From Eledone cirrhosa (taxonomy: Eukaryota), in the NCBI GenBank assembly GCA_964016885.1, contig OZ024741.1, positions 330,956,001-331,020,000 on the forward strand: a stretch of DNA of 64,000 nucleotides. Reading direction: 5' to 3'. The position numbers and the translations under genes were made by a program. Positions 20,101 to 45,475 of the stretch are shown here, piece by piece; position 1 is the stretch's first letter, and each line of letters begins with the position of its first letter. A model generated the notes under the pieces. It saw only the letters and a program-made list of their open reading frames with translations. It searched no databases and was not told the origin of the DNA.

Positions 20101-20636
20101 ACACACACACATGCTCACACATACATAATATACATGTGTGTGCTTATGCATGTGTGTGTAATATACTCCACACATATATACCTATATATTTATCATAATG
20201 AAAAGTAAAAACACTTTAAAAAAATAATACCTAAAATATAATTTAAAAATTTCCAAAGAATACAAAAAGGAAAAAGGTTTCTCATTAGAAAAACAAATTC
20301 AACGCTTCCTAGTAGGAATAGAAGATCGCAATGAATGAAGACAAGCAAGCAAAAATGTTGCCAGATGAATTTGTTCTCTGATAGCTAAGAATCAGATGAT
20401 AACCAAACAGATAAGGTTAACAACGGAAAGTTAAGCCAAAATACATAGATCTATTGTCTGTTTGGCAATACATCTGACAGTCAAGCTACCATTCCAGGCT
20501 TTTACTTTTTTCTTCTCTTCTCTTGCTTTTTCTTTGTTGTTAAAAACATTTTTGTGTTCATCCATCAAGAACTCAATTCTACTTCTTTCAAATACAGCCA
20601 ACATAGACTGCTATTTGATGTGTTGGCATGTCCGAA

Positions 20637-20864
20637 CTAGCACCATCGGAAAGGGACAGCCCGTGGTCGGTCAGCCCCTTCTTTGACTAGTGGCTTGTGA
20701 AACTCTCGGCCAGGCCGTGTGTGAATGGTGGCCCAACAATTCTCACAATAGTACTGCAGACAAGTCACATTGGCACAGAAGAAGGGGGCAAATTTTCCCC
20801 CACAGCGAGCTCCTTGACACTCATCACACATTTGGTCATCTAAGACGTAAGGCTTCACCTCGAC
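20637..20864 (-). CDS. CPEB2/3/4: CPEB last coding exon: ZZ-type zinc-binding domain and stop
   Basis: Acceptor gttatag|gtc; VEVKPYVLDDQMCDECQGARCGGKFAPFFCANVTCLQYYCENCWATIHTRPGREFHKPLVKEGADRPRAVPFRWC-TAG. Confidence 0.97.
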   Translation of the reverse strand, partial: VEVKPYVLDDQMCDECQGARCGGKFAPFFCANVTCLQYYCENCWATIHTRPGREFHKPLVKEGADRPRAVPFRWC

Positions 20865-21796
20865 CTATAACACAATACACACAAATATAAGACATATGCT
20901 GAAAAATGGAATTTGACGGCTGAAATATGAAAATAAGAGAACATTCAATAACTAATATCTTAGACTGTTGTAATGGTTGACACACACACACTCTAAAGTG
21001 GTTGGCAATTAAACAGAGACAATATACTGTAGAGAAGACTCTCCAGTCTAGCTAAGTGTATGAAAACCTCTCTAGTATTGGTGCCATGATAAAATGAACC
21101 AAGTACACTCTGTAAAGTGGTTCGTGTTAGGAATGGCATCCAGTTGTAGAAACCAAGCAAAATATGGAACATATGAGCCATATAGTTTCACATCACAACA
21201 ACCTGTCCAACCCATGCCATGATATATATATAGACACACACATTTACATATATATATATATAAAGAGAGAAAGAGATAGATGTAATCCCATTGGAAGGAA
21301 GTCACAGTAGAGGAAGACCATGGAAGACCTGGATGGAAGTGGTGGGAGCTGATCTCAAATCACTGAAGCTCATAGAGATGGCAAAGGAGAGATGCTGTAC
21401 TGAGAAGGACCCATCCAACCCATGCAAGCATAGAACAGTGGACATATGGCGATGATGATTTACATACATATTAAATATTCATTTTTTAATACTTTCAGAC
21501 GACACCAGGCATAGTGAGGACTTAGTGGTTAGAGAATTGAATTAGCAATTGTGAAGTTGTGAGTTTGATTCCTGGACCTGGCAATGTGTTATGTCCTTGA
21601 GCAAGACACTTTATTTCATGTGCTCTTTCTGCTAGGAGTTGCGACCGGTAGATAGTATTAGCAATGGAAACCTTGTCCCCTTGATTCAATCTGACAAGTT
21701 CCACTACACTCGATAAGCGAATGAGGTCTGGGATTTTGTCTATTGATTCAATTGATCAAGGCATAGCTAATGTGAAGTAGGAAAGTTAATACTCAC

Positions 21797-21978
21797 CCTC
21801 TTGTCAATATCGGCATGTTGCAGTTGAACAAAGCGAGCACTGATTGCAGCAATGTAACTTTGCTGATTTGAGAAAGCTACACGGCCAGCTCCTTTAGGGT
21901 ATTTTAATTCAGGATCAGTGTCAATGCCTGCATAACAAACACCTCCATAAAGACGATCCATGATCAAAGCTAACTCCA
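21797..21978 (-). CDS. CPEB2/3/4: CPEB RRM2 exon (LELALIMDRLYGGVCYAGIDTDPELKYPKGAGRVAFSNQQSYIAAISARFVQLQHADIDKR)
   Basis: Acceptor ctttttcag|tg, donor agg|gtgagt; 182 nt. Confidence 0.97.
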
Positions 21979-22435
21979 CTGAAAAAGAGCAAAGTAATAT
22001 TTGTATTAATATTTAGTCAAATAAACATGTACTCCAAATTGAGTCATATAACCCTTTTGTTATATTTCTAATGAAAAACATTACCTACTATTTTAAAATA
22101 ATTTTGAAAATAATCAAGTATTTGTAGGGAATTAGTAAAATAACTAACATTTTCATAATTAAGCAGGTGTTTGGAACTTAACATAGCAACAATAACAAAA
22201 ACAACAATAACAATAAAAACGATGCCAACAACAAAAACAATGACATTATTGCTGACAATAACAGCAATAAAAATTATAACAAAAACAACAGCACATCACT
22301 GCTGACAACAACAATAAAATGATGACAATGATAACACCACCACTGCTGATGACAACAACAGCAATAAAAACAATGACAACAACAGCAATAAAAACGATGG
22401 CAAAAACAGCATTAAAAGGAGTGAAAAATACTTAC

Positions 22436-22550
22436 ATGCTCTTAGTGGTCTTGGAACTCCACCAACAAAAATTGTTTTTCGCGGATCCAATGGTTGGCTA
22501 CCATCCATCACAAAATCTGAATCACTCAAGTTCCATGGTCTAATTTGGAC
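22436..22550 (-). CDS. CPEB2/3/4: CPEB exon: RRM1 end / RRM2 start (VQIRPWNLSDSDFVMDGSQPLDPRKTIFVGGVPRPLRA)
   Basis: Acceptor tttttag|gtc, donor gcat|gtaagt; 115 nt. Confidence 0.97.
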
Positions 22551-22639
22551 CTAAAAATTGATAAAAGATAATATTTAAAAAAATAAAACATTAACATCTT
22601 TTTAATCAACAGAAAGCCAACTTTTGTAGAGGAAAATGT

Positions 22640-22882
22640 TAATCCTTTCACGACTGTATTTCTAATGAAACAAATACCTCTAATGGAATTAATTGATGAA
22701 GAATTTTGAGGGATTTACTAAAATTATTAATTATTTTATTATTGAGATAGTAATTTAATATATGGTGTAACATAATATATAATTATGTTGGAAGATATTA
22801 ATTTAAAGGGAACTTTTAAAATGTGTGGTTTTGTTTCATAGAACTGGAACTGGTTTTCACCAGGTTGATAGCAAAAGGGTTA
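22640..22882. mobile_element. piggyBac-like MITE (TTAA..CCTT / AAGGG..TTAA ends), multi-copy
   Basis: ttaatcctt...aagggttaa termini; related copies at about 15960-16147, 22050, 25677-26095, 27930-28135, 29420-29631, 33560-33702 and 40740-40960 in both orientations. Confidence 0.6.
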
Positions 22883-23233
22883 AATAGGAATCCGTTAAAA
22901 TAGGGTCCACGAAAAAATGTTGCTTTCAAAGAAAATATTTTAAGCCTTAGGGAAAAAAAAAAAAAAAAAAAAAACATAAAACAGTTAACTAAAGGAGTTG
23001 GTAAAATACTTTCCTGGGGAATCATTAGAAATCAAAAGAAATGATTCTAGAGAAAAACAAAAACAACCAAATTCAGTGTTGATGAAGTGTAAACACACAC
23101 ACACCAAATATTGTCTCCAGGTTGAGAACCACTGCCTTAGAGAAACAGATTTATGTGTATTGTCCACATATGTTGTACAATACATGCAGCAAGAATTTGA
23201 CAACTAGTGTGGCTTATCTTTTCATGTACTTAC

Positions 23234-23352
23234 AGGTTTGTCTTTCATAGTAGGACTGGACACACACCAGTATAGTTTATCATCATCAGTGATGCAGGCT
23301 TCAATCAACGACTGCACTGACATTTCATCTTGAAACAACAGAAAGCAATAAC
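23234..23352 (-). CDS. CPEB2/3/4: CPEB RRM1 exon (GYCFLLFQDEMSVQSLIEACITDDDKLYWCVSSPTMKDKP)
   Basis: Acceptor ccttgttag|gt, donor cct|gtaagt; 119 nt, phase 1 to 0. Confidence 0.96.
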
Positions 23353-23419
23353 CTAACAAGGAAAGAGAAAACCAAAAATCTTCTGTTAGTCAACACTGAA
23401 TTAGCTGGATTCATTGAGG

Positions 23420-23690
23420 TTGATAATACATGTTGGGTGTTGATAATGCATGTATGTAGGTAATGTTGGTTGATAACGCATGTAGGGAGGTAATGTTTAG
23501 TGTCGATAATACACGTAGGACAGATAATACATGTAGGGTGGTAATGTTGGGGGTTGATAATACATGTAGGGTGGTAATGTTGGGTGTTGATAACACATGT
23601 AGGAAGGTAATGCTGGGTGTTGATAATACATGTAGGAAGGTAATGTTGGGTGTTGATAATACATGTAGGAAGGTAATGTTGGGCATTCAT
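23420..23690. repeat. 33-bp minisatellite (GTTGATAATACATGTAGGAAGGTAATGTTGGGT), about 8 units, in the intron just upstream of exon 23352
   Basis: Direct inspection; explains ORFs 23325-23768. Confidence 0.92.
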
Positions 23691-24268
23691 AATCACAAGG
23701 GTGATAGTAGTAAACGACAGGAAACTGCTCCAGTTTGCTCAGCTGGCAAAAATGAGCCGTATCTGTAATTCAAAGAGTCTCACTGTGTCACGCTGAATCT
23801 CACTGATCTAATCTCTTTTTATCTGAAATTTCTCTTGTAACAAGGCTTCTAGCACGTGCTTGAACTGCTCTGTTACCATCAACTAGATGGAAAAATTTAG
23901 AAAACTGACATATTTAGTAATTGCATTCTACATACCAGCAAGAACTAATGTCATAGTTGCCAGCTGGTGGGAAAAGACCAAAGGGTAAGCCAAAGAAGAC
24001 CTGGAGATCAACCCTAAAAGATGACCTGCACAGGTGTAGCACAAACTAGTTTCAAGCACCAACCCTTGTCAGAAACAGAGAAAGATGGAAGAGCATAGTG
24101 GTTTGTTGATGTGAGGTTGGAGGATCCAGATGACCAGATACTAATTTTTATTGCAGCAAAGTTATTCAGAATTTAATGTATATTTAAAAAACAAACAAAC
24201 ATATAATGCAACTGTCACATGGAAATATATTCTAGGTTATAGAATTTGAAGTTGAAATAACAACCTAC

Positions 24269-24358
24269 CTTTAGGTGGGAAATAGGACTTGCTCTCAGCC
24301 TTGTGAGGCCAATCCACTACTAAAGGACCAAAGCGTCGGAATGCTGATGTAATCTCCT
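24269..24358 (-). CDS. CPEB2/3/4: CPEB RRM1 exon (EEITSAFRRFGPLVVDWPHKAESKSYFPPK-G)
   Basis: Acceptor tatttcag|ag, donor aaag|gtaggt; 90 nt; diagnostic CPEB2-4 peptide. Confidence 0.97.
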
Positions 24359-24922
24359 CTGAAATAGAATGGAATTAGTGAACAAGATTAATTTAAAATA
24401 ATTGATGCCAAAGCTGGACTTACTTATAAGCTAAATAAGCTATGCCCTTGGGGGTCTCATTTTTTAAAATATATTTTTATTCTATCCTTAGTTTTTATTC
24501 TTTAACACTAAATCATTATATATACATATATGTTGAAGGCTTTACTCCAATATTTCAAATTTTAGCAACAATCTGTTTGTCTACTAGTAACGATACCATA
24601 AATACTAACAAATTTCACAATGCTCTGTCCACTAGTAAAGATACCATAAACATTTAAATCAACAAAAATGTTTTAAAATATTTTCTGCTTTACAGGATAA
24701 TTAAACTTAATAATCGCACATGGACAACACAATTTTTAGTACAACTCACTACATTACATTAAAAATTAAAGTCTATAATCTATTACTGCAAATTTTCACA
24801 ATATGTCCACTAATAAAGATACTATAAACATTTGAATTAACAAACCCATTTTTAAAATATTTTCTGCTAAATCATTACAAGATGTTAAGACTTAAAATGA
24901 TAATAAATGAACTTTGTTGCAC

Positions 24923-25105
24923 CTTCGTCAATATCTGGAGGCAATCCCCCAACAAAGACTTTCCGTGAAAAGCGCTCCAATCTCTCCTGGGCAGTTGGAG
25001 GGTTGGGGGACCCACGGGCAGGAGAACTCAAACTAGGAACGGTTTGGTCAAGACTTGAATCGTCAAGTAGATGATTATCTTCACTGAAACCAAATGGAGA
25101 CTTCC
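24923..25105 (-). CDS. CPEB2/3/4: CPEB exon: linker and start of RRM1 (GKSPFGFSED...RLERFSRKVFVGGLPPDIDE)
   Basis: Acceptor tttattccag|gg, donor gaag|gtgcaa (weak); 183 nt, phase 1/1; RNP2 motif VFVGGL. Confidence 0.95.
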
Positions 25106-27118
25106 CTGGAATAAAGAAGAGAAATATGTCAATAGCTAAACAAAGATTTATAGGCAACAATAAACTTCAATTTAATTCAGTTTATGACCCCTTCCATGGG
25201 TCTTAATTCCTGGTGGAGCATCTTTTAAATCTGGTGAAGCCCATCTCTCTCTCCAGATCTGAATACAGCTGATTTCTTCCAGGGTAAGAAAGAAAGAGGG
25301 AGAGGTAGTGACAAAGAGATATAGAGGAAGAATCAACCCTGGTACTGGACTGGTACTTTATTTATCAACCTCAAAAAGATGAAAGGCAAAGTTGACCATG
25401 GCAGGATTTGAACTCAGAGCCAGAACGAATACTGTAAAGCATTCAATCTAACATTCTGACTACTCTATCAATTTGCCAACTAATTCAGTATATTGTCAAC
25501 AATAAAAACAACACCCAAAAACAGACTATATTCCCAAATTGAAGAAATAAAAACAACAACAGCAATCAATACACATCCAGTGATAACATTATTGACATTG
25601 ACAAAACAAATATTTAGATATGATAGAAATGATATATAGAATGATATAATTGTAGAAATCATTTTAATAGTTATGTTTAATCCTTTCGTTATGATATTTC
25701 TAATGAAAGACACCACCACTAATGATTTTCAAATCATTTGTAAAATAATCAAGAATTTGGAGGTATTTAATAATATAACTAACTTTATCATTATTAAGTT
25801 GGTGTTTGGAACATAAAAGTTCTTACATAAAATTATGATGGAATGTTTATAGATAAATATAAACACTAATCCTTTTGTTACCATATTTCTCATGAAAGAT
25901 AATATTCCATATTATTTTCAAATACTTGTGAAAATAATCAACCATTTGAAAGGATTTAGCAATAAAACTTTCTCATTATTAAGCTGATGTTTGGAATATA
26001 TATATAGAGGGTTTTTAGATAAATAAAAACACTTTAAACAGCTTAGTATCATACAACCAAGGCAGTTAGAGATGGTTTGGAATCACAAGGGTAAATTGTT
26101 CATAAGATCCACATTATAGTAAGAAGGCCAAAAATGTTGTCAACTATCAACCTGTCGTGAGCAAGGGCAGGCAATGCCTGGTAGGCCACTGGGTTAGGTA
26201 AAACAAAAAAGAATCAGCTATAAAAAATGTCACAAAAAACTGAAATCATAGTTGCTATACAAAGATTGAAATGAAAATGGAATGAGCCTTAGTTGAGCAA
26301 TGAAAACACACTTCTGGCCCTCAGCAGTAAGCATTGGTTAGTGCCACCTTAGCTAAACAGTAAAAACACACTTCTGGTCCTCAGCAGTAAGCATCGGTTA
26401 GTGTCACCTTAGTTGAGTAGTGAAAACACACCTCTTGTAGTTAGCAGTCTGTTAGTTAGCTAAGTAGTGAAAATGCACCTCTGGCCCCCAACAATCTGTT
26501 AGTCAATGGCACCAGTTTTAAAACCCAGTTGGCTTCTGTTCCTCAGACTATAACTTCAGTACCTGTCAATGTTGATTTCTAATTTAAGCACAAGGCTAGC
26601 AAATTGGGGCAAAGGGCAAAGTTGACTTTGGTGGGATTTGAACTCAGAGTGTAAAGAGGCAGAATAAATACCCTGGTGCTCTACCAATTCTGCCTATCCA
26701 CCATCCTAATTAATAAACCTAATATTTGAAACAAAACTGAATAACAGATATTCATTTCACTGGAGAATTTCAATGGAATTCTAACAGAAGACAAATGGAA
26801 AATCAATGCCAAGATGTCGGGTCAAAGTTTTAGTGAGCTGATGTATACAGTAACAACAATAACGTGTTTTAAGATCAGTTTCTTGCTAAACATGGGTTAG
26901 TCTTACAGGACCTATGATTGGTTTCATATTTATCACAGGGTCCTTTTTGAGGCAGTGTTTTATGGCTGAATGCCATTACTGGCACCAACCCATTTAGTCA
27001 CCATTTAAGACATGAAGGAATTAGGAAACTGATGTATCTAGGATTTTAAATACTTTCAATCCTTTTCAAGGAAAATATCCAGACCGTGCTGGATCAAATT
27101 TGACTTGAAATATAGTAC

Positions 27119-27189
27119 CAGGGCTGATGCTTCCATTCGGGCAAACTAGGCAGCAACCTAGGGTGCTAAATACTCAGGCACCAGTCCTG
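27119..27189. mobile_element. Tiny hAT-like MITE remnant
   Basis: Imperfect TIRs cagggctgatgc / gcaccagtcctg (10/12 match); weak 8-bp flanking similarity. Confidence 0.35.
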
Positions 27190-27543
27190 TGTGGTAGTTT
27201 ATCATTGAAATAATTCTTTCCCAGCCAGATCTATGAAAGAAGAGAAACACTTCCAATATCATGCGTAAAACATTAACAACAAACATGAACCAACAAAACT
27301 CCAGGAATAACACAGAGAGAGGAAGAAAAGGAGGTGGAAAGAGAAAGAAAAGAGAAATGAGAGAACAAAAATACTACATTAACATTTTTTTTATTTTCAT
27401 ATTTAGAATGGAAACAGAAAAAAAAAAACCAGTGTGAAAGTAAAGGAGCTGAAGGGAACAGATAACCAAAACAGGGGACTCTAGAATGACAGGGGTTTAA
27501 GTAAGAATAGAAAAGGAATGTGTGAAAAAAATTGTGAAAATAC

Positions 27544-27567
27544 CTCTTCTTCGTCCATAAGCACGTG
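27544..27567 (-). CDS. CPEB2/3/4: CPEB 24-nt microexon encoding (A)RAYGRRR(G), homologue of CPEB4 microexon 4 / CPEB2-4 B-region
   Basis: ttactgcag|CACGTGCTTATGGACGAAGAAGAG|gtattt; phase 1/1; lies between the ...FK-G exon and the GKSPF exon, as ARTYGRRR does in vertebrate CPEB4. Confidence 0.88.
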
Positions 27568-29721
27568 CTGCAGTAAGCCAAGTAGAAATTGGAAAACTTT
27601 AGAGATTTAACACTGCACATACACACATGCACACAGAAATCACACTATACATACACACACACACTTGTGTATGCATGTATAATGTATGAGTATAGTACAT
27701 GCGTGTGTGTAATTAATAGAAGAAAAAAAAAAGCAATATCTACAAACTGTAGACTATATATATAAAAAGAAAAGTTGAAGTCACATCACCACCATCAAAT
27801 AACAACAAAGATTACCAGTGAACACCATCATCTGTGTATGTGTGCCATGTATGTGGAAAACGGGTATGAACATTGTTCTCTGTCTACCCTATACATGGCA
27901 GACACTGTGTGTAAGAATCCAGAAGAATGGTAACGTTTTTGATATCAGCCTGACTAAAACCACCCATTTTAAAGAGTTCCTATTTAAATTAAAATCTTCC
28001 AACATAAATTTATACAACAACCATATGTTAAATTATTATCTTGGTAATGAAATAACGTTAGTAAATGCCACTAAATTCTTTCTTAATTAATTGAAATAAA
28101 GTGTATTTCACTAGAAATATGGCAAGGAAGGGTTAAGTATTTTCCCACTGTTGACATCCATTTGAAATTGACAGATTCTTCAAGACGATTTCTAGCCTTG
28201 AAAGGACACCAACCAAAACTTACACATGTCAACAACTTAAAAACTAAATTGGAGATGGGAAGAAAGTAACCAGTTGTACAATTTGAACCCACTTTCTCTG
28301 CAATTACCAGCAAATGTTAACATGTTATGGCTATCACTTTTGCGATATTTAAACATTGTTAACAATAGCACCAGTTACACTTAACCATTCAATTCTCCTA
28401 GTTACTTTTATAAAACTACTAACACCTTACTTTCTTATTGAGTTAGTATCTTCACTTAAACATAGTATACTGCAGATACAAGCAGACACACAGAAACGAA
28501 GAGAAATATTTGGGTGAACTAAACAGATACAAAATCTGTATGTATTAAATCTACTACTTCACTTTCTTCCCTCACAAGTCTATTTTAATGTATTCACGTC
28601 TGTAAGATGAATCATTTGTGCTAAATTTGTCTAAAATTGGAAAAAAAAAAGAAAAAAAACCTATCCTTATTTTAAAACTGTCTCTGATAAAACTGTGAAA
28701 TGTAAAATTAACAGCTCACATCCTGGTTGTATTGATTGGGATCCCAGTCCTATCATGTAACAGCTTACACCTGTACAGGTTAAACAGGCCTCCTACCAGG
28801 TTGTATCTCATAGGAGGTTTCTTGGATGTTTTAATAATATGGGTCCCAGTCCTATAATGGAAAGCAACATGAAATGAAGCATCTTGCTGAAGAACATAAC
28901 AAACCACCTGGTCCAAGAATCAAACCCATGACTTTATGATTGTGAGTCCAACAATCCAACTAATAGGTCACATGCCTTCATTTGTTTTTTAAAAAACTGA
29001 AGGAAAAATAATGATTTTTTCCTGAGAAAACAAGAAATTAATTAAAGTTAATAAATAATTGATATTAATCAGTGTTTTCAAAATGACTAAGAAAAAATGA
29101 AAATAGGCTTTAGTTGACGATACTACACTGATGAGACATAATATGACTAAAACATGCCTGTGTAGTGGTCAACTAGCCAGCTGACAAAGATATAAATTTT
29201 CTTTAAAATTGTGTGTATTTAGATTCGCAGCATGACGAACCCAAAATACAAAAATATCAGTTTCACATCAAGAATCTTGCCAAACAATTACAAATTTGTA
29301 TATATATACTAGTAGCAGTACCTAGCATTGCTCAGGTGCCAAATATGAAGAAAATTAGCTCACAATTTATACAGTTCTTTACATATATACTTTACATACT
29401 ATTTTGAGGCAAACACTTCCAAAGCTGCCTCTGGCCCAATGGAACAAAACCACCCATTTTAACGAGTTCCTAAGTAAATTAAAATCTTCCACCAGAATGT
29501 TATATAAGAACCATGTTACGTTGCAAATGCCATCTTAATAACGAAATAATTTTAGTAAATCCTTCCATATTCTTCATGAATTAATTTAAATACAGAATAT
29601 TTTATTTGAAATATGGTAATGAAGGGATTAACAGTCTTGTTGATACACAGAGAAAGACTTACACGAATATATACAAATTCACAGGCATCTAAACACACAT
29701 TTATATATATCTATATATGCA

Positions 29722-32700
29722 CAAGACGTAAATAGAGTGAACGACAGAATAATTAAAATACGACTTGTCCTCAATAGAACTACGGTGACAGTAATATCTG
29801 CGTACGCACCCCAATCCGGACTGCCCGGCACTATAAAAGACAGATTCTATGAGACACTGTTGCTAACTACCTCCCAAATATCTGACAGTGACTATATAAT
29901 TATTGCAGGCGACCTAAATGGTCACGTTGGACAACATTGTGACGGCTACGACGAAATCCATGGAGGCTATGGGTTTGGTACTAGAAATGAGGAAGGCTCC
30001 AGAATCCTGGAATTCTGTGATGCAAATAACCTAACTATCTGTAACACTAACTTCAAAAAACGTGACAATCACTTGATCACCTACAGATCAGGGGAACATA
30101 CCAGCCAGGTAGATTATATCCTTACCAGAAGACGTGACAGAGTGTCTGTTGTAAACACTAAATCCCTCCCCCATGAAGAATGCACCTCCCAACATAGACT
30201 GATAATTAGCGACCTCATAGTCAGGACGAGACGTACTCGACAGCAGAAGAGGACTATCCTCAGGAGGAAAATATGGAAGCTAAAGGACCCCACTGCCAGA
30301 AATAAATTTCAAAGCATATTACTTGATGCTTTCGACAGTAAGGAAGAGCATCTAGAATCGGACAATATAGAGGGACAGTGGGAATTTCTGAAAGCAAACC
30401 TGCTGTTGGCGACAGACGAAGTCTGTGGCTGGAGCAGGCCTGTAGGCAGGAGGAGAGTAACATGGTGGTGGAACAGTAAGGTGGAGGGGTCAATTAAGGC
30501 CAAAAAGCAGGCTTGGAAAGTATGGCGGGATGGGGGAAGTAGAGTAGACTATCAAGTGGCCAGGAGGGAAGCTAGGAGAGAAGTGTACTTAGCAAGAAGG
30601 GAAGCTGAGGAAAGAAAGTTCAAGCATGTTCTACAACGCGATGACCAAAAACGTGAGGTGTTCAGGATTGCTAGGCAATGCGTCAAGGAAAACCGTGATA
30701 TTGTCGGGGAGAAGTGTGTACTTAACGATGATGGCATACTTGCCATCACCGACACTGATAAGAAGGTAGCTTGGAAGTGTCACTATGAAAGGCTACTAAA
30801 TGAGGAGAATAAATGGGAGAAAGACAGTCTCCCCCATATCGACCCAATAGAGGGACCAGCAGTGTTAGTCGAGGGGAGTATAATAAGTAAGGCAATCAAG
30901 GATATGAAGACAGGTAAGGCGGCTGGGCCTTCGGAAATAGTTGCTGAGATGCTGAAGGCATCTGGCACGGTGGGACACACCATGGTCACCCGCATAGTTA
31001 ACCAAGTCGTACAGAATGGGGTTGTTCCGAAGGACTGGCATAGCAGCATCATCGTTAACTGTTATAAGGGTAAAGGAGACGCCCTAGATAGGAGTAACTA
31101 TAGAGGCATTAAATTAATCGACCAGGTCATGAAGGTCACGGAAAAAGTAATAGCGCAACTAATCAGAGAGAGAATTGACCTAGATGAAATGCAGTTCGGG
31201 TTTGTGTCAGGCAAAAGCACCACAGACGCTCTTTTCATAGTACGATAACTACAGGAGAAGTACCTAGCTAAAGGTAAACCCCTCTACTTAGCTTTTGTTG
31301 ACCTGGAGAAAGCCTTCGACAGAGTCCCCCGCTCCATTATCTGGTGGGCTCTTAGAAAACTAGGCGTTGACGAATGGCTTGTGAGGGCTATACAAGCCAT
31401 GTATAAAGAAACAGTCAGCAAGGTTAGAATTAACAACGAATATAGTGAAGAGTTTAGCGTAAAAGTTGGCGTCCATCAGGGCTCTGTTCTCAGCCCCCTA
31501 CTATTTATTATTGCCCTTCAGGCTATAACAGAGGAGTTCAAGACAGGCTGCCCATGGGAACTCCTATACGCAGACGACCTGACACTCATAGCGGAATCAA
31601 TGGCCGAGCTAGAGAAGAAATTCCAAACATGGAAGCACGGCCTAGAGTCAAAAGGACTTAAAATTAACCTGGCTAAGACCAAAGTTCTAGTTTCTAGGAA
31701 AGAAAACAAGGCGGCGGTCCCTTCTGGGAAATGGTCGTGCTCGGTGTGTAGGAAAGGCGTAGGTAGAAACTCCATTTTATGTCCTAAATGCAAAGTATGG
31801 GTGCATAAAAGATGTAGTGGGATCACAGGTAAGCTAACTAAGAACATAGATTTTACATGTGGCCGGTGTTCTGGTGCAATAAGTAGCAGCAAGTGCCCAC
31901 AAAATACTAGCTCTTTCAATTGCGCAGAGGGTTCTATAGAAATAGTGGACAGCTTCCGTTACCTGGGCGACAAGATCAGCAGTGGGGGAGGGTGCTCTGA
32001 AAGTACTGTAGCTAGAGTCAGAACTGGTTGGAAAAAGTTCAGAGAGCTTATACCACTATTAGCTGCTAAAGGGTTCTCCCTAAAAATGAAAGGCAGGTTG
32101 TACGATGCCTGCATACGAACAGCAATGCTACATGGCAGTGAGACCTGGGCATTGTGTGCAGAGGATATACGCAGACTAGAGAGGAACGAAGCTTGCATGC
32201 TCCGCTGGATGTGTAACAGTAATATACGTGAACGGCAAAGCATAAACGAACTAAGGAAAAAATTAGAGATAAGAGGGATCAGATGTTGTTTACTCGAGAG
32301 AAGGCTACGTTGGTATGGACACGTGATGCGCATGAAAGTCGATAGCTGTATAACAAAGTGCAGGGCAATAAAGATAGACGGTAGCCACGGAATAGGCAGA
32401 CCTAGAAAAACCTGGGATGAGCTGATAAACTCCGACCTCACACACTTACACCTCTCCAAGACAATGTCACTGGACCGAGACCTTTGGCGGTACTCAGTAA
32501 CAGAGAAGACCCGCCTTGCCAGTAGGCATCTCTAACAAAATACACCCCGTCCCGCCACCACCCCCACCCCATCCACACCACCCGTTCTATGTAAAGTTAT
32601 GTTGGTGCCGCGCCATCCAGGCCGAAACAAATGAGATCGTGTAGGTGTCACGACAAAAAAACACACAGTCCACGCTGTAATGTGGCCGTGTAGGCAACAC

Positions 32701-32894
32701 GGTAAAAACCTCCCAGACCCACACTGTAAATGTGGTTGGTGTTAGGAAGGGCATCCAACTGTAGAAAACCTGCCAGACAGTCCTATGCGAGCAAGACAAT
32801 CACTCTTGCCTCAAGTGGGACTACCCCCGTCCAAACCCATGCAAGCGTGGAACACGGACGTTAAACGTTGATGATGATGATGATGATGATGATG
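29722..32894 (+). mobile_element. Young, 5'-truncated RTE-clade LINE (APE endonuclease, RT and PHD-finger insert, (GAT)n tail), antisense in the CPEB intron
   Basis: ORFs 29737-31248 and 31381-32535 are one frame broken by a single TAA (VR*LQEK); APE motifs YAPQ, GDLNGHVG, SQVDYIL, SQHR; RT motifs FVDLEKAFD, GVHQGSVLSPLLF, YADD; RLRWYGHV and GRPRKTW; 3' UTR ends in (GAT)n. Confidence 0.95.
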
Positions 32895-34224
32895 TAATGC
32901 ATATATATTAATCTATATAAGCACCAGCACATATTGTATATATATTAATCTATAAACACGGAAACCTGTAATGTGTATCTATGAATCTATATACACCCCA
33001 AAAATATGTATATATGAATCTATGAATGAACAAAACAAGGGAGACAACCGCTACATGTATATGAATCTATATACGCATAAATTTGTAATGTGTATATATA
33101 TCTATGCACAAACCTGTAATGTCTTCATATGAATCTATGAATGCACAAACTTATAAGGTATATATATGAATCTATCTATTCATGCACGAACCTGTAGTGT
33201 GTATATATAGATTCATACAGATGCCAACACAGTGTGTGTGAATCCAGTTTAGAATAGGTAAATAGTATCCGTGTGTGTCATATAAGGTGACTAAAAGAAG
33301 CGGCACCAGGAAAGCTATCTGGTTGCAAAAGACTGCCTAAAAAATGACAAGTATGAAGTCTGTCATGGGTCCCACAAGGCTAGCTCCTGCTTTAGGAGGG
33401 AAAATGGCTTCAAAATGCTTGTTGTGTTCTTGTGTACACACACACACACAGGTACAAACATGTTATGTATTTGTATAAATTTATACAGAAAAAGACATAG
33501 AATCCATATGTAAACACTGTTTTAAAGTATTTATATTTATCTAAAATACTTCCATCATTATTTTATGTAGGATCCTGTGTAAAGTTATGCTCCAAACACT
33601 AGCTTAATAAGAACCTTATATTACAAATTCTTGATTATTTTTTAACTGATTTGAAAGTCACTAATAACGTCTTTCATTAGAAACATGGTAATGAAAGGGT
33701 TACAGGGAAAACAGTTCAATTAAGATGAGAAAACATAATAAACTGTAGTCAAAATAACCTTATCTATTTATTTCTCATGAACATTTTTATTGGCAAGGAC
33801 AAAATGGTTTCTGAGCAATAACATGGGTGTCTAATGAAGAGGGGGTGCAGATGTTAAAGGGAGCCAGTAAGGTGGGAGAAAGAAACCAGTAGGGACCCGG
33901 ATCTGGAGGAAGGTCCTTAAGCCAGCCATGTGTGCGTGTGTGTGAATGTTTGGGGATGGGGGCAGAAATCAAAGTAACCATTAACAAAGAAAAGAGATCA
34001 AATAAGAACACACACAGACTTACACAGACTCACAAATATCAATATATATACACATTCAACATACATACAAATATGTATACACATACACATCTTTATCCAT
34101 GTGTTACTCAAGAAACATGATATATTTTCTCAATGGTAACACCTTGTACATTATAGTTGTATGCAGGTGTGTGTGTGTATATATACACACACAAACACAC
34201 CTGCATACAAATGTATGTATGTGT

Positions 34225-34881
34225 ATCATCATCATCATCAACGTTTAACGTCCGTGTTCCACGCTTGCATGGGTTTGGACGGGGGCTTTCCCACTTGAAG
34301 CAAGAGTGATTGTCTTGCTCGCATAGGACTGTCTGGCAGGTTTTCTACAGTTGGATGCCCTTCCTAACACCAACCACATTTACAGTGTGGGTCTGGGAGG
34401 TTTTTACCGTGTTGCCTACACGGCCACATTACAGCGTGGACTGTGTGTTTTTTTGTCGTGACACCTACACGATCTCATTTGTTTCGGCCTGGATGGTGTG
34501 GCACCAACATAACTTTACATAGGAGGGGGTGGTGTGGATGGGGTGGGGGTGGTGGGACGGGGGTGTATTTTGTTAGAGATGCCTACTGACTGTAGTAGGC
34601 TTTACTTTGTATTTAGGTAAGGCGGGTCTTCCCTATTACTGAGTACCGCCAAAGGTCTCGGTCCAGTGACATTGTCTTGGTGAGGTGTAAGTGTGTGAGG
34701 TCGGAGTTTATCAGCTCGTCCCAGGTTTTTCTGAGTCTGCCTACTCCGTAGCTACCGTCTATCTTTATTGCCCTGCACTTTGTTATACAGCTATCGTCCT
34801 TCATGCGCATCACGTGACCATACCAACGTAGCCTTCTCTCTAGTAAACAACATCTGATCCCTCTTATATCTAATTTTTTCC
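34225..34881 (-). mobile_element. RTE LINE 3' fragment (same family as 29722-32894), inverted
   Basis: Near-identical 3' UTR and C-terminal peptide (RGIRCCLLERRLRWYGHV); (ATC)n at left end. Confidence 0.93.
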
Positions 34882-34884
34882 GTG

Positions 34885-34915
<31 letters not shown>

Positions 34916-35599
34916 TTACATATAAATGTTTTTACCATCTTCTAGTAAGTTCATTGCTTGCCTTCCTTCTTTTCTTATTCCTTTTATATCTATATGCCTA
35001 CACAAGGTCTTGGATATGTTTGTCTAGGTAATATTAACTGATGTGTACACTTTGACCAGTTCTTTTCACTACTAACTTGTCATTGAGTGATTACTAGATA
35101 ATATGATTAATATTATTGTGTATTGATCAAAAGTATTCCTATGTCATCATCATCATCATCATCATTGTTTAACATTTATTTTCCATGCTAGCATGTATTA
35201 GATGGGTTATTCTATTTGAGGCATGTCAGGCTTTTTGTTGTGATATCAACACGACTACTTTACAGTGTGGGCTGGGCACTTTTTGTTGTTTCACTAAAAT
35301 GACCACATTAGTGTGGACTGGAGAGGGTTGTGTAAAGGAAGAGATAATTAATACATGGGTGGAGTATTAAGGCATGGGAGGTGTATGGAAGGGAGGAAGG
35401 ATAGGGATTAAATGGGGCATACTAAATGTATGCTTCTAACCATGCACATGGGAAGGCGGGTCTTTTGTATTACTCTGTGTCATTGCCTTTGAGAGGTGCA
35501 ATTGTGCAAGGTCAATTTTTATCACCTTATCCCAGATCTTCCTACTCCATAGCTTCTTAGATCGGCCAGCACCTTTTTATACAGCTGTGTGTGTGTATA

Positions 35600-37090
35600 T
35601 ACACATGGGCTCATAGAAAACTAGTAGATGAATGACTTGTGATAGCTATACAAGCCAAATATAGAGGAACAGTCAGCAAGGTTAGAATTAACAATGAATA
35701 TAGTGAAGAATTTAGTGTAATAGTAGGGGTTCACCAGGGCTCCGTCCTGAGCCCCTCCTGTTTATGATTGTCATACAGGCTATAACAGAAGGGTTTAAGA
35801 CTGGTTGCCCATGGGAACTTCTATATGCAGATGCTCTAACTCTCATAGCTAAATCCATGACTGAACTAGAGAAGAAGTTCCAAACATGGAAGCAAGGCCT
35901 AGAATCAAAAGGCCTTAGAGTTAACTTGTCTAAGACTAAGTTCTAATATGTAGAAAGGAGAATAGGGCACAGGTGCACTCTGGGAAATGGCCATGCTCAG
36001 TGTGTAAGAAAGGAGTAGGTAGAAATTCCATTCTATGCACCAAATGCAAACTATGGCTATATAAAAGATGTAGTGGGATCACAGGTAAGCTATCTAAGAA
36101 TGTAGATTTATATGTGGCCGATGCTCAGGTGCAGTAAGTAGCAAGGACCCACTGGATGCTATCTCCTTCAACTGCCCAGATGGTTCTATAGAAATAGTAG
36201 ACACTTTCCATTATCTGGGTGACAAAATCAGCAGTGGAGGAGGGTGCTCTGAAAGTGTAGTAGCCAGAGTTAGAACTGGATGGAAAAAGTTCAGAGAGCT
36301 AATACCACTGTTGGCCACAAGGGGTTTTTCTCTAAAAGAGAAAGGCAGATTGTATGATGCTTGTATACAAACGGCAATATTACATGGTAGTGAGACCTGG
36401 GCATTGTGCTGAAGACTTGCATAGATTTAGAAAGAAATGAAACTTGCATGCTCCGATGGATGTATAATAGTAATGTGCACGAATGGCGAAGCATAAACGA
36501 ATTGAGAGAGAAACTAAGCATAAGAGGTACCAAATTTTGTGTTCTGGAGATGAGATTGCGTTGGTATGGCCATGTGATGTGTATGAAAGACGACAGCTGT
36601 ATAAAAAAGTGCAGAGCAATGAAAATTGATGGAAGCTACGGAGTGGGTAGACCAAGAAAAACCTAGGGTGAGGTGATAAAAACTGACCTTGCTCACTTAC
36701 ACTTCTCTAAGACAATGTTACTGGATCGAGATCTTTGGCGCCATACAGTTGTACTGCATTCCCTTCATACAAACCTTCAGTCAGTAGGCACCTCTTAACC
36801 CAATATACATCCCACCCTACACACCCTACCCCATTTCCGTCCACTGTGTCGGTGACACAGCAAAAAGCACTCAGTTCACACTGTAGAGTGGTCGTGTAGG
36901 AGACACGGTAAAAAGGCTCCCAGTCCACACTGTAAAAGTGGTTGTTGTTAGGAAGGGCATCCAGCCATAGAAAACCTGCCAGAGACACTTCCGTACGAGC
37001 GAGAAATGGTCTCCCGACCAATCCTGCATCAAATGGAACAAAACCGTCTAACTCATGCTAGCGTGGAAGATGGACGTTAAACAATGAAGG
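35600..37090 (+). mobile_element. Older degenerate RTE LINE (RT, PHD, 3' UTR)
   Basis: QAITEGFKTGCPWELLYADA, CSVCKKGVGRNSILCTKC and RLRWYGHV with stops and frameshifts. Confidence 0.9.
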
Positions 37091-37856
37091 AGCGCGGGAC
37101 TGCGTACGGTTTATAATTTTTTATCCCATTAGTAAAATAAGTTGCATTACTTTGAATAAATAATGAATGAATATTACATAATTTATCTACTAAATTTCAT
37201 GGCTGTTGATTAAATATATTTTGTTTATTTAAAGATTCACTTCTTTAAAATTTCTGAAATGTCAACACTTCCAGTTGGCCATCGCTTAAATAAACATACT
37301 AATTTTCTCCTAAATCAGTTTATATATAATATCTTTTTTAATGTATCATGGATTGCGTTACTGATTAAATAAGACAGTGTAACGCAGTCTTCGTTCAATT
37401 TCTATGTATTATATATTGTCAATTACGATTTTATTTGATGTATATAAGGTTAACGTATGTTGATGCCCTACGGACAGACACTGGTCTGTTGGAGATGCAG
37501 GATATGGCAGTGATAATGAGGGACAGAGACCACTGGAGAGAACTCTTCCATGGATCTCGGGAATTTTACCCGCCCTAGATAGATACCTGCATATAATATC
37601 AATATGCACACTACACATGCTAGCAGAAAACCACCCTTTGGGTGGTTTTTCTGCTATTATATATAATTATTAAGGCCAGTTACTACAACAACACCATACC
37701 AGGTATGTACGTTTCGTTGGCCCTGAGGACCAACTTGTTTAACTTGTACTGATGAATATGAACTGGACTTGAGTTGCTCTATATCTCTATATCTTGGATT
37801 TTTTACCTACCTACTACTATATATATAAAAAATATGTTATTACATCAACATATATG

Positions 37857-37913
37857 GAACTGATGACCTAGGGGAACCTTATATCCTCCTAGTAAAACAC
37901 GTGTTTTCAGATA
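37857..37913 (+). ncRNA. Degenerate minimal hammerhead motif within a Penelope-type inverted-repeat remnant (37805-37990)
   Basis: gaa CTGATGA c ctagggga..tcctcctag t AAAA(for GAAA) cacgtgtt ttc; flanked by inverted aaaatat..attacatcaaca / tgttgatgtaat..atatttt. Confidence 0.4.
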
Positions 37914-38189
37914 ATGTATTGTTGATGTAATGAAATATTTTATATAACACAATTGATCCCCTGGATTGAGTTCTTTGTCTAATATTTAATATGAAATTCA
38001 ACTATACTATATTTAACGTCCACTTTCCTTGCTAACAAGGGTTGGACGGGTCTACATAGACCATGTAGGTTCTGAAGTGGAGTTACTGACTTCCCAGATG
38101 CCAAGGGGTCTGCATCCTGCTTATTTACAGCCATACATTCTATCAAGTGCAGAGTAGAAGTTGTGCCTTTAATTGTTATTCAACAAATA

Positions 38190-38626
38190 TCATCATCACC
38201 GTTTTACGTCCGTTCTTCCACGCTAGCATGGGTTAGACGGGTTGTCTTGTTGTGGGCAGTGTCTGGTCGGCTGACCATGCCTTGCTCATACAGGAACTGA
38301 TCTGGCTTGATTTCTACAGCTGGATGCCCTTCCTAACACGAACCTCATTTACAGTGAGTGCTGGGTGCTTTTTCGTGGCGCCTACACGTCTACTTTACAG
38401 TGTGGGCTGGGTGCTTTTTTGCCGTGGCACCTCCACGACCACCTTGCGGTGGGGGGTGTGGGGGCATATTGTTTATATGCTTCAGCTTGTACCCATGGGA
38501 GGTCGAGTACTCTGTATTACTGCGTGACGCCAGAAGTCACGGTCGTGTGTCATTGTCTTTGAGAGGTGTAATTGGGTAAGGTCGGCTTTTATCACCTCAT
38601 CCCAGGTCATCTTGGGTCTCCCCACT
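38190..38626 (-). mobile_element. RTE LINE 3' fragment (subfamily 2), inverted partner of 46300-46765
   Basis: Near-identical reverse complement of 46350-46755 (ORFs 38252 + and 46397 - share MGSVWSADHALLIQELIWLDFYSWMPFLT). Confidence 0.92.
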
Positions 38627-39667
38627 TGCAGTAAATCTTTAGAAGCTATGTAAGGTAATTACGATATGTTTGCTGATGTATATATAAATGATGATATTTG
38701 AAGACTTGCATGCATGTGAAAATATAGGAATATTTTAAATGTAATTGCTGAAGCATAATGGATAACAATATAGCTACAATCAAACATCAGACAAATGTCC
38801 TTATCAGATAATCCTTGAAAATCAGCAGCTAAAAACTCACACAACATACAAAAAAAAAAGAAAAACACAAAATGAAAATTCTCCAACTTCCATCTAGACT
38901 CTGATTTTGGCACTTTCTTTCCATACACACACACAGAAACAACATAGATAACTAAAAATTCAAAATCACAAACATACACAATGACACAGGGTAGAGAGTG
39001 AGTGGACTCTTCAGTCCTGTCCAACAAACAATAAAATACATCCAGTCAATGCTGTAAAGTGGTTGGTGATAGGAAAGGTATCCAACCTGAAAAACTCAGC
39101 CAAAAATTATGGAAAGCACAACCTGTAGCATTCACACTAATTGTGTATCTAGGACTAACACTAATCATGTTATTAATGTTGCATCTAGTAGTGAGGTGGT
39201 TAACCTGGCCATGTGTAAGAACTCCTCAATACAGAGGTGGTGTGAGGCTGTGCTGGAAAAGACTCATCCATGATGATACACCTGAAACAGCTGCTAGAAA
39301 AAGCAGCCAAATCTCCCTCAAATTACACAAATATGTCTTAGAAAACGGCATATTGGATGTGGTCCTAGACTCCCTGTACACATGAAATACATAGGACAGT
39401 CATGGCTGGAATACTTTTGACTAAGTCTAAAATTTGTGTCACGCCTCGAGGCTCATCAGGTCAACAAACTGAAGTAACATCATACAGAAGACCCTTCACA
39501 CTCCTATGCACACCTTCAAAAATTCTAGAAAGGTTGACCCTTGATATCACAAAATAGATTCAGACAACTACATTTAACAATCATATTACTCACAAACCTA
39601 ACAGTTCAAAGCAAGAAAGTTATAACAATACATGATTTACATTTAAATAAGAAGACACCACCACCAC

Positions 39668-39712
<45 letters not shown>

Positions 39713-40218
39713 TTTATGTCCGCATTAGTTCACACTGTAAATGTGGTTGGCATTAGGAAGGACATCCAGCTGTAGAAACCAGTCAGAAACAGTTCAGTAT
39801 GATCAAGACACAGTCATCTGATCTGACATAATTCACAACAGGACAGCTCATCTAACCCATGTTAACGCAGAAAAATGCATGTTAAATGGTGATGATGATG
39901 ATGATGATTCCTTGCTGGAATGGGTTGGATGGGTTGTTACAGCTTGAGATCAGATAGGCCAGAGAAACCTCATCTTGCTTACAAGTTCTATATTTAAAAT
40001 GGTTTCTAGAGCTGGATGCCCTCCCTAACACTAACCATCTTACAGGGTGTACTGGGTGCATTTTTATCGTGGCACCACCACTAACACTTTACAGAAAGTA
40101 CTGGGTGCATTTTTTCATGGCACAACCATTATCACTTTATAGAGTGTAATGGGTGTATTTTATAGTGGTACCAGCACTTTACAGGACAAACATATATATA
40201 TATATATAAGTGGCTCAC

Positions 40219-40318
40219 CTTTGAAGTGTTCGTGAGACTCAGTGTTACTTCTCATTAAATCTAACAGGCGACTCTCCAGACCTGTGAAGCGCATGCTGTC
40301 AAAATTATTTCCTCGCTC
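40219..40318 (-). CDS. CPEB2/3/4: CPEB 100-nt exon (ERGNNFDSMRFTGLESRLLDLMRSNTESHEHFK-G)
   Basis: Acceptor tttattttcag|gag, donor aaag|gtgagc; phase 0 to 1; peptide aligns with vertebrate DRSR..DSLN.HSLE.SL.D.MR.E.D.LKG. Confidence 0.9.
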
Positions 40319-41251: not shown

Positions 41252-41326
41252 CACAGGAAGATACTCCATCCGACCTGCATCAGTCCAAAGTACAACATTG
41301 TCTGACACCATCTCTCTAGGAATGTT
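41252..41326 (-). CDS. CPEB2/3/4: CPEB 75-nt phase-0 cassette-type exon (NIPREMVSDNVVLWTDAGRMEYLPV)
   Basis: Acceptor tttgtctgacag|aac, donor gtg|gtaagt; open frame, phase 0/0, compatible with both neighbours; unique sequence within a repeat-rich intron. Confidence 0.65.
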
Positions 41327-43654: not shown

Positions 43655-45475
43655 AGAATATGCAAGTAAAACATCCCGTTGGTCATCAACACTAGTAATC
43701 TCGACAGAAGGCTTTGCACCGACCGCTGCTTGTTGCTGCATTTGACCTGGGAACGATGTACTCCGCCGGAACTTGGAAGGAGAAATAAGAGCAGTCTGAC
43801 CAAGCTGAGGATGTGACTGGCCTTGGTTAGGGTTCAGAGGACCTTGATGTCCAAGGGAGGTACCCTGGTGAGAATGAGTACCATGTGGTCCGACTGGATT
43901 ACCACCACTCTGCTGTTGCTGTTGTTGTCCTGGTTGGCTTTGAAAAGTTGGTTTTTTAATTGGAGCCACAGGGTTTATACTTGGGACAGAACGACGTTGT
44001 TGGTGATGTTGTCCTGCTGGCTGTTGTTGAGGTATGCTAGCCCAAGGAGAGAGACCAGCAGCTGCCTGCTGTTGGTGATGTTGGTTTTGTTGAGAAGCTA
44101 ATGACACACCCTGTGACTGTGACATAGTCACCCCAGGGCTAACAATAGTACTTTGCCCTTGAACACCTGTACTGCCACCTGGAGTTCCTGCGCCACCACT
44201 TTGACTATTCCCACTGCTATTACCTCCCCCTGGCTGAGCTGTTGCAGTTGCTGTGGTCCACAGTGATGGCTGAGGGGCTGAACTCCATGCAGGATATGTT
44301 TTAGAGGTATTAAGCAAAATATTTGCTTGTTGCTGTTGTCGCTGCTGTTGCTGCTGCTGTTGAAAGTTATGATGGGCTGTTATCGCTCGTCTCTGAGGGG
44401 CTGTAGCTTGCTGCTGAGCAGCCATATGTCCAAGGCTGCTCATATGAGCAGCAGCAGTTATCCCTGTACCAAATAGTGTGTTATGGTTAGGGGGAAATTG
44501 CTGAAAGGCAACGGTTCCATTCAATGACTGGAAGCCCTGCAGGAAAGTATCTTCAGCTGATGCAGTCGACCAAAAGTTTGGTACAACTGATGCAGCAGAG
44601 GAAGATGACGCTGGTGAAGACGATGAAGATGTAATAGATGAGGAGTACGAAGAGGAAGAGGAAGCAGCAACACCAGCAGCAGTCAATGACGTCACCCCAA
44701 CAGCTGGATTTGGAGCAACAGAGTCTGTAGTTAGACCGAGATGTAATGGAGATGAAACAACACCTCCAAGAAGTTGATCTGCTACTGTAGTGGGTTGTTG
44801 TTGTTGTGATGACACTGAACCAGAGCCTATTGATGTCCCCGGTTGTTGCTGTTGCTGTGGCATCTGAGCTTGCTTCTTTTTGTTGCTACTGTTAGGAATT
44901 GCAATATTGCCACAGTTGTTACCAGCTGCACTGCTGTTGTTACTGGTGCTACTGTTATTGTTGTTGCTGCACACTACTGCAGCTGTTGTCGCCACAGTAG
45001 TAGTTCCAGTCCCGCTTGTTTCACTGCCGTTCACACCAGCTCCTACTGTACTGTTGTCTCCCCCTGTTGTGCCGTTGTCTCCAACCACTACAACCCCACC
45101 AACACCATCCATAACTTTACCCAAACGCGCAGAATGCAATGTTCCCACTCCTCCACTGCAGCTTTCACCGTTACAGTTGTTGCTATTGGCAACTATATTC
45201 ACTGCTGAATTATTACCTATTAAGTCAGTTGAGTCAGTGCAGGCCGCCAGCGGCACACCAAACTTCAATAAGTTAGTAGAGGAACAGTGTTGAGGAATTT
45301 GATTACAAAGTCCTCCTAGTACACCAAGTTGGCTGGAGTGCTCAACTTGCTGGCTACTGTCTCTATCAGACATCGTGGACATCTGTTGGACATGCAAATC
45401 ACTGAGGTTGACAGATGCTGGGTGATAAAGGTTTTCGCAGAAAATGAACTGATCCAAAAGACTTCCATCTTGCAT
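43655..45475 (-). CDS. CPEB2/3/4: CPEB first coding exon: 607-aa low-complexity Q/S/G/N-rich (prion-like) N-terminal domain
   Basis: ORF 43595..45475; starts MQDGSLLDQ (cf. vertebrate CPEB3 MQDDLL); carries PQRRAITAHHNF, QRRSVP and ISPSKFRRSTSFP motifs resembling Orb2/CPEB2-4 N-termini; ends ...LLAYS at donor TCT|gtaagt (phase 0). Probable acceptor upstream at 45941 (tttatttag|atg) gives a 5' UTR part 45476-45941. Confidence 0.9.

Follow-up and report, generated by a model that had tools for sequence, protein, structure and literature searches.

The 24-nucleotide (nt) exons of mouse Cpeb2 and Cpeb4 are eMIC-dependent and that of Cpeb3 is neural (PMC8797185, table S2; this and the other sources given here by PMC number or as preprints are drawn on in part, and what is taken from them is limited accordingly). 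In mouse CPEB3, S419 and S420 lie just past the exon and are phosphorylated only when it is included; the arginines of the exon serve this next-exon phosphosite, where PKA and CaMKII prefer S420 (PMC4767366). In human CPEB4, whose microexon is linked to autism, the exon arginines contact a His cluster, and condensates stay reversible (PMC11711090 and a preprint). The exon considered here lies in a 64,000-nt stretch of the genome of the octopod Eledone cirrhosa (contig OZ024741.1, positions 330,956,001 to 331,020,000; the window), on the minus strand at 27544..27567, and encodes ARAYGRRR. It is a real in-frame exon of a CPEB2-subfamily gene, whose product is an RNA-binding regulator of translation, and very likely an optional cassette orthologous to the me4 exon (B-region) of vertebrate CPEB2/3/4.

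Read on the minus strand (27567-27544), the exon is CACGTGCTTATGGACGAAGAAGAG, with cag before it and gtattt after it. With the exon the protein reads HEHFK-ARAYGRRR-GKSPF, and without it HEHFK-GKSPF. Both frames are open, and the octamer makes up residues 666-673, with the RRM1 start motif 45 residues further on. The original prediction, made from this DNA alone, had claimed a 24-nt phase 1/1 exon with cag and gt borders, spliced in frame as HFK-ARAYGRRR-GKSPF between introns of ~12.6 kb and ~2.4 kb; the sequence, both frames and the chance test given below agree with it, and the introns are 12,651 nt (27568..40218) and 2,438 nt (25106..27543). It had also held the exon to be probably invisible to gene predictors, which is contradicted by the RefSeq X1/X2 models of Octopus bimaculoides (XP_052828706.1/707.1) and O. 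sinensis (XP_029645168.1/170.1), which contain it: they are 991/983 amino acids long and differ by just these 8 residues. Both records of O. vulgaris carry the octamer, and ARAYGRRR is identical in the window and the three Octopus species. These isoforms thus have the identical exon in the orthologous gene, as products of automatic annotation only, and no statement of the homology of this exon to me4 was found in print.

No sequencing run recorded as RNA contains the stretch; in the run listing for the window, 20 of the 24 rows are putative RNA from two other organisms (share 0.10-0.11). One contig of run X16, from one study, spans the upstream exon and ends exactly at its donor, 40219; this end would fit a non-G continuation. 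Four runs matched against 27420-27720 gave no cover of the microexon, a result that is uninformative, as the listed pieces, of at least 22 letters, all lie on a TG repeat.

Pairs of predicted records that differ by these 8 residues occur in 12 invertebrate genera, and the phyla concerned are Mollusca, Brachiopoda, Nemertea, Arthropoda, Hemichordata and Chordata. The octamer is ARAYGRRR in O. bimaculoides and O. sinensis, ARTYGRRQ in the chiton Liolophura, ARPYGRRR in Lingula, xRGYGKRQ in Lineus, ARGFGRRR in Tachypleus, TRTYGRRR in Ptychodera and Glandiceps, ARTYGRRR in two Branchiostoma record sets and ARSYGRRR in two Labrus species; octamer-differing pairs are also found in Schistocerca gregaria, Nephila, Parasteatoda and Centruroides. 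RefSeq isoforms of such kind usually rest on RNA alignments. In the hemichordate pairs, presence of the exon gives Thr...Gly and its absence gives Ser, and the same pattern is seen between the CPEB3 records of Hyla and Xenopus (two species). Since a codon split in this way, Thr...Gly versus Ser, fits no other phase, the hemichordate exon must be phase 1/1. Across the records position 3 of the octamer is A, S, T, P, G or N, and identity reaches 8/8 in two comparisons, spiders with vertebrates (ARSYGRRR) and amphioxus with CPEB4 (ARTYGRRR). The claims that the octopus exon shares size, position and phase with that of vertebrate CPEB2/3/4 (24 nt, phase 1/1, the same site, 7/8 residues) and that it arose before the protostome-deuterostome split (isoform pairs in molluscs, brachiopod, nemertean, chelicerates, locust, hemichordates and amphioxus) are both supported.

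Two explanations would remove this ancestry, one by denying the exon and the other by multiplying its origins. An AG and a GT might by chance enclose 24 open nt, and the 15.1-kb intron does offer 38 stop-free candidates of this form; however, the microexon matches the CPEB4 octamer of a platypus record (P0208) at 7/8 residues, whereas the remaining 37 candidates reach at most 2/8, and the best score in 300 shuffled introns was 5/8, reached once. With the exon also annotated in the records of three Octopus species, a chance stretch is exceedingly improbable. The other possibility is that several phyla independently gained a 24-nt exon in one hotspot intron; recurrent neural exons at equivalent positions are common (Mantica 2026 preprint, 10.64898/2026.09.05.749416; PMC8797185) and the distribution is patchy, with the octamer in 26 of 70 named invertebrate taxa (the grouping is our own, unnamed proteins and vertebrates are excluded, and the pattern was widened post hoc to take in five diverged cases). 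Repeated convergence to a shared length, a shared phase and up to 8/8 residues is, however, unexpected; common descent is far more economical and is favoured for that reason, and independent origins are already largely refuted and very improbable. On these comparisons the exon would have been inherited from the bilaterian ancestor and later lost or diverged in several lineages, which we hold with high confidence.

Among the five diverged cases, the octamer of the clams Mercenaria and Ruditapes is ALNFKQKL and that of Dreissena ARNFRQLL, and all three have exact +/-8 pairs; the tunicates Clavelina and Phallusia have a diverged octamer and are without pairs. In the records examined, mostly single, the octamer was found in 0/13 gastropod taxa (including Aplysia), 0/9 pteriomorph bivalves, 0/9 echinoderms and 0/1 myriapod; it is in 1/6 pancrustacean groups and 10/13 chelicerates, and is absent from four records of a close, probably cephalopod, relative (the P0005 cluster). 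The missing octamers suggest lineage losses, though they do not show them, because most are single records. In P0352, P0359, P0373, P0344 and P0408 a basic run stands before GKSPFF or a longer linker (RRRGKS, RKRGKS, RGFSRRKG). These runs are perhaps remodelled forms of the exon; the first four records fall with arthropods in the tree, and P0408 is not in it. Directly before the microexon, arthropods and vertebrates have a 17-residue segment, and amphioxus and hemichordates a 20-residue one (P0295, P0172, P0532, P0232), perhaps another old exon of optional use. The upstream intron of the window, when searched, gave no counterpart of the 17-residue segment (best score 26 among 170 candidates).

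What the exon might do in octopus can be judged against the two vertebrate mechanisms. At the exon junction the octopus protein reads R-R-R-G-K-S-P. With the exon included, positions -3, -4 and -5 relative to the G-K-S-P serine are all Arg; with the exon skipped there is Lys at -3 and no Arg. The basophilic site R-R-R-G-K-S that had been predicted is indeed formed, and the part that suffers is its reading by PKA or CaMKII: by sequence comparison, the Ser-Ser at which their site is completed is Ser-Pro in octopus, the position of mouse S420 being Pro. As kinases that require Arg at -3 disfavour Pro at +1 (PMC7809594), PKA or CaMKII acting at the octopus Ser is unlikely. Among the proteins examined in which Gly follows an intact octamer, and as far as names are shown, Ser-Ser belongs to vertebrates and Ser-Pro to invertebrates. 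The DYRK/CLK consensus is Arg-preferring and proline-directed, and R-x-x-S-P would suit a kinase of that type, not PKA or CaMKII. Once phosphorylated, the disordered linker, 45 residues ahead of RRM1, would move the protein between its repressing condensates and an active state, in neurons only. The near-letter conservation of the octamer within a disordered linker would fit a motif read by a folded partner, and in the clams that are without the Ser the octamer has diverged and the Arg run is gone. A splice-gated Arg motif of this kind, for an Arg-preferring, proline-directed kinase, is put at even chances. The same prediction had remarked that the internal S/T is replaced by Ala. Ala does stand at position 3 and is unremarkable, that position being variable and the tested phosphosites lying downstream of the exon; a lost phosphosite there was rejected on the same grounds.

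The condensate mechanism of the CPEB4 type needs a His cluster. The densest His window of the octopus protein has 4 in 24 residues, that of eight other invertebrates 3-4, and that of three CPEB4 records 9 in 24; a turtle CPEB2 has 8, and three fish and frog CPEB2/3 records only 3-5. A CPEB4-type His cluster in the octopus protein is accordingly rejected, which qualifies the suggestion of a CPEB4-type condensate mechanism. As the octopus protein fits neither vertebrate mechanism fully, a splice-gated kinase motif is favoured, with condensate control as its consequence.

For its inclusion in neurons, eMIC (Srrm234) would be the driver. This genome has an SRRM_C match above the cut-off (G000:C22:28167743-28167880, L041), and about 21 kb downstream (L044) there is an AG-preceded ARKRPVPYHR reading. 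This reading presumably represents the motif of the last eMIC exon; the match and the reading together point to an eMIC-encoding Srrm234-like regulator in the genome. Exons of the eMIC class have UGC near the 3′ splice site, a long AG-exclusion zone and a strong branch point (PMC8797185). In the 3′ splice region of the microexon (27568..27640, minus strand; sequence features only), TGC is found at -5 (overlapping CAG), at -50 and beyond, CTAA at -35, the nearest AG at -31, and TGCATG at -64 within a TG-rich tract. By analogy with mouse Cpeb2/4, neural and eMIC-dependent inclusion of the octopus exon is probable.

Ancestral cassette, eMIC-driven neural inclusion and a splice-gated Arg motif that licenses phosphorylation of the adjacent Ser, taken as a whole, make up a reading to which we give slightly better than even chances. 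A number of points weigh against it. Four runs matched against 24850-40400 gave no exon-exon joint at the microexon among the matches listed, which are swamped by repeats. The isoform pairs come from database cluster look-ups and are predicted models, and exon structure in genomic DNA is from this window and, as coordinates, from mouse. In Haliotis, aphids, termites and Strigamia GKSPF is kept and the exon is absent in the records examined. The 3′ region is, on its sequence features, only loosely compatible with the eMIC type. The count that speaks for the reading, with Ser two residues on in 154 of 158 proteins in which Gly follows an intact octamer (123 Ser-Ser, 31 Ser-Pro), is made up mostly of related vertebrate rows. 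The Ser is absent though the octamer is Arg-rich in amphioxus (ARTYGRRR-DNY), in tunicates (…RRR-GKW) and in the chiton (ARTYGRRQ-GKF), and position -3 is Gln in nemerteans, from all of which it follows that the Arg patch can persist without this phosphosite. In N2a cells, CPEB4 phosphorylation is low and unaltered by depolarisation (PMC11711090).

Some of these points favour a kinase-free role like that of CPEB4 me4, in which heterotypic contacts of an Arg/Tyr patch would prevent aggregation and leave the condensates formed by the Gln-rich N-terminus reversible. Such a role has been shown for human CPEB4 (PMC11711090 and preprint), the Arg run without a downstream Ser in amphioxus, chiton and tunicates speaks for it, and the octopus N-terminal region has 718 residues, 11% of them Gln. 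However, the His cluster with which the patch would pair is missing (no 24-residue stretch of the octopus protein has more than 4 His and eight other invertebrates reach 3-4, whereas CPEB4 reaches 9), and ARxYGRRR tolerates less reshuffling than one would expect of a generic sticker. This physical role is considered doubtful. Another concerns tissue: the exon could be real and ancient and yet be included in octopus broadly, in another tissue, or at a low unregulated level. Absence of the octamer from the records of 13/13 gastropod, 9/9 pteriomorph and 9/9 echinoderm taxa implies that many lineages can do without the exon; between phyla, eMIC programmes have been rewired almost in full (PMC8797185); and the Mantica preprint, with octopus among its species, did not name the exon as ancestral neural in the part of it drawn on. 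That preprint, however, requires a tissue-specific insect exon, and most insect records examined are without it. As the window shares ARAYGRRR unchanged with three Octopus species, and the three paralogous mouse exons are all neural or eMIC-dependent (PMC8797185), inclusion that is not neuron-specific is unlikely. The splice-gated Arg motif with neural inclusion is thus retained as the working account.

The slot may be older than the 24-nt form, which is a lead, no more. A metagenome scan gave 40 loci, most of them short or spliced, and none had a bilaterian-type microexon; two loose pattern matches were both unlike it. One locus, L008, is a whole CPEB2-type gene in which both flanking exons are equivalent and phase 1, and the 7.7-kb intron between them contains a 45-nt exon, of phase 1/1 and well-formed splice sites (L008:8583-8627), AFKYHLQKKGLSHAG. 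The same exon is at L007:6424-6468, and a similar segment occurs in L005, as an uninterrupted reading, and in P0357 and P0361. With FastTree, L008, L007, L005, P0357, P0361, P0399 and P0402 form a group (98) that includes none of the 19 named bilaterian rows, and the signature of the group is in only 4 proteins among those examined. The group would appear to be non-bilaterian, perhaps cnidarian; the sampling includes no named cnidarian, sponge, annelid, nematode or Drosophila record. P0353, guessed from the tree to be non-bilaterian, was identified as the tunicate Clavelina and rejected. The 45-nt exon resembles the microexon only slightly, with Ala in first and Tyr in fourth place and a pair of basic residues.

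Microexons shared across such distances are few. Fly and mouse neural microexons have four shared positions (PMC8797185), and table S2 of that source, in the part available, has orb2 in GO lists only, with no fly exon row. In the 20-species study of the Mantica 2026 preprint only APBB1/2/3 and MADD are called ancestral, and no mention of CPEB or orb2 was found in the available part of its main text. The full-text literature searched gave no report of the CPEB exon outside vertebrates or of its ancestry, a 2019 microexon survey and some supplements lying outside that coverage; the supplement of PMC10284499 has no CPEB sequences. That survey, Torres-Mendez 2019, reportedly included octopus and amphioxus. 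It is quite conceivable, at somewhat less than even chances, that the ancestry of the exon is already contained in Torres-Mendez 2019, VastDB or the Mantica datasets. Since RefSeq already annotates the exon itself, what is of interest is how deeply and faithfully it is conserved, which lineages appear to have lost or altered it, and that it fully matches neither vertebrate mechanism, so that its ancestral function can be put to the test.

If ancestral, it would be the third such neural microexon and the sole one whose mechanism in human disease has been worked out. The prevailing view is that neural microexon programmes were rewired almost completely between phyla, and an octamer near-unchanged in six phyla contrasts with it. 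Invertebrate CPEB2 genes, with the Arg motif, no His cluster and Ser-Pro, provide a direct test of phosphoregulation versus condensate control; in octopus the gene is single-copy, and among clams, tunicates, gastropods and echinoderms there are natural variants and apparent losses to compare. A speculative scenario that joins these strands would have the CPEB microexon as third bilaterian-ancestral neural microexon, nearly unchanged from octopus and spiders to humans and derived from a longer basic exon (45 nt, as in L008) that occupied this phase-1 slot before the bilaterians and was cut to 24 nt and brought under eMIC control. The original function would have been a splice-gated kinase switch, R-x-x-S-P; vertebrates would have replaced the Pro by a second Ser, for PKA/CaMKII, and CPEB4 would later have gained the His cluster that makes skipping pathogenic, with gastropods, including the memory model Aplysia, and others losing the exon. 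So many steps together are improbable.

The gene around the microexon is complete on the minus strand of the window, its exons being 74-100% identical to O. bimaculoides P0001, and has the architecture of the CPEB2 subfamily: a disordered N-terminus, tandem RRMs and a ZZ domain. Profile matches of P0001 are RRM_7, RRM_1 and CEBP_ZZ, and a window exon also matches CEBP_ZZ; the 3.0-Gb genome has 1 match to the ZZ exon. When five exons are joined by their coordinates, the reading frame stays open for 734 codons. The large first coding exon (43655..45475, donor gtaagt; tblastn match to P0001 residues 1-620, 92%) encodes the Gln/Ser/Gly-rich disordered N-terminal region, which has runs of Gln, Ser, Gly and Asn and is much longer than the 405-451 residues of the other invertebrate records measured. 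A 75-nt coding exon of phase 0/0 follows (41252..41326; tblastn match, splice sites, open in the joined coding sequence). Its peptide is present in Octopus records and the P0005 cluster and absent from the other mollusc rows shown; the exon may be cephalopod-specific. The upstream flanking exon (40219..40318, 100 nt) carries the conserved helix-like motif LESRLLDLMR and ends in phase 1 at AAAG/gtgagc. Beyond the microexon, known by its splice sites, its frame and isoform pairs elsewhere, the downstream flanking exon (24923..25105, 183 nt; acceptor ccag/GGAAG) starts with G-K-S-P-F, the candidate phosphosite, and has the RRM1 start at its end. Five exons found by tblastn (20640..24359) supply the rest of RRM1, RRM2 and the ZZ domain, with approximate ranges 24359-24252, 23353-23192, 22550-22404, 21982-21788 and 20864-20640.

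The upstream intron holds, on the opposite strand, a non-long-terminal-repeat retrotransposon (29644-32535, plus strand) that has endonuclease and reverse transcriptase regions as well as a PHD-finger match, and that one stop divides into two open frames; related fragments lie in the gene at 42597-43442 (minus strand), 36098-36706 and 34613-34915. The AT-rich stretch beyond the stop codon (about 17500-20636, minus strand) has nine TTTTAT elements, GTGCAAT once, at 18310, and AATAAA at 17875, 17659 and 17592. A 3′-untranslated segment of Cpeb2/3/4 is deeply conserved (PMC10735318).

Of the known systems the nearest is human and mouse CPEB4 me4 (MmuEX0012543), likewise 24 nt long, alike in 7/8 residues (ARTYGRRR) and placed between the LE..L.D.MR exon and the exon in which RRM1 starts, with Gly-x-Ser following; the human CPEB4 sequence in the Garcia-Cabau preprint has that octamer at that place. 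It differs in that octopus has Ser-Pro, not Ser-Ser, and no His cluster, and in that the octopus gene is single-copy, whereas CPEB4 is one of three vertebrate paralogues. The B-region of CPEB2/CPEB3 (mouse Cpeb3 exon 7) shares an octamer of the ARSYGRRR type and the supply of Arg to a phosphosite in the next exon. However, octopus and other invertebrates have Pro where S420 would be, and the search of the intron in the window gave no counterpart of the optional 17-residue exon that vertebrates and arthropods have just before the B-region. The microexons of APBB1/2/3 (6 nt) and MADD (9 nt) are also short, frame-keeping and kept in protostomes and deuterostomes, and they have measured cross-species neural specificity. 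Compared with these, the CPEB exon is longer, has a recognisable motif and a human disease link, and appears to have been lost or to have diverged in many lineages.
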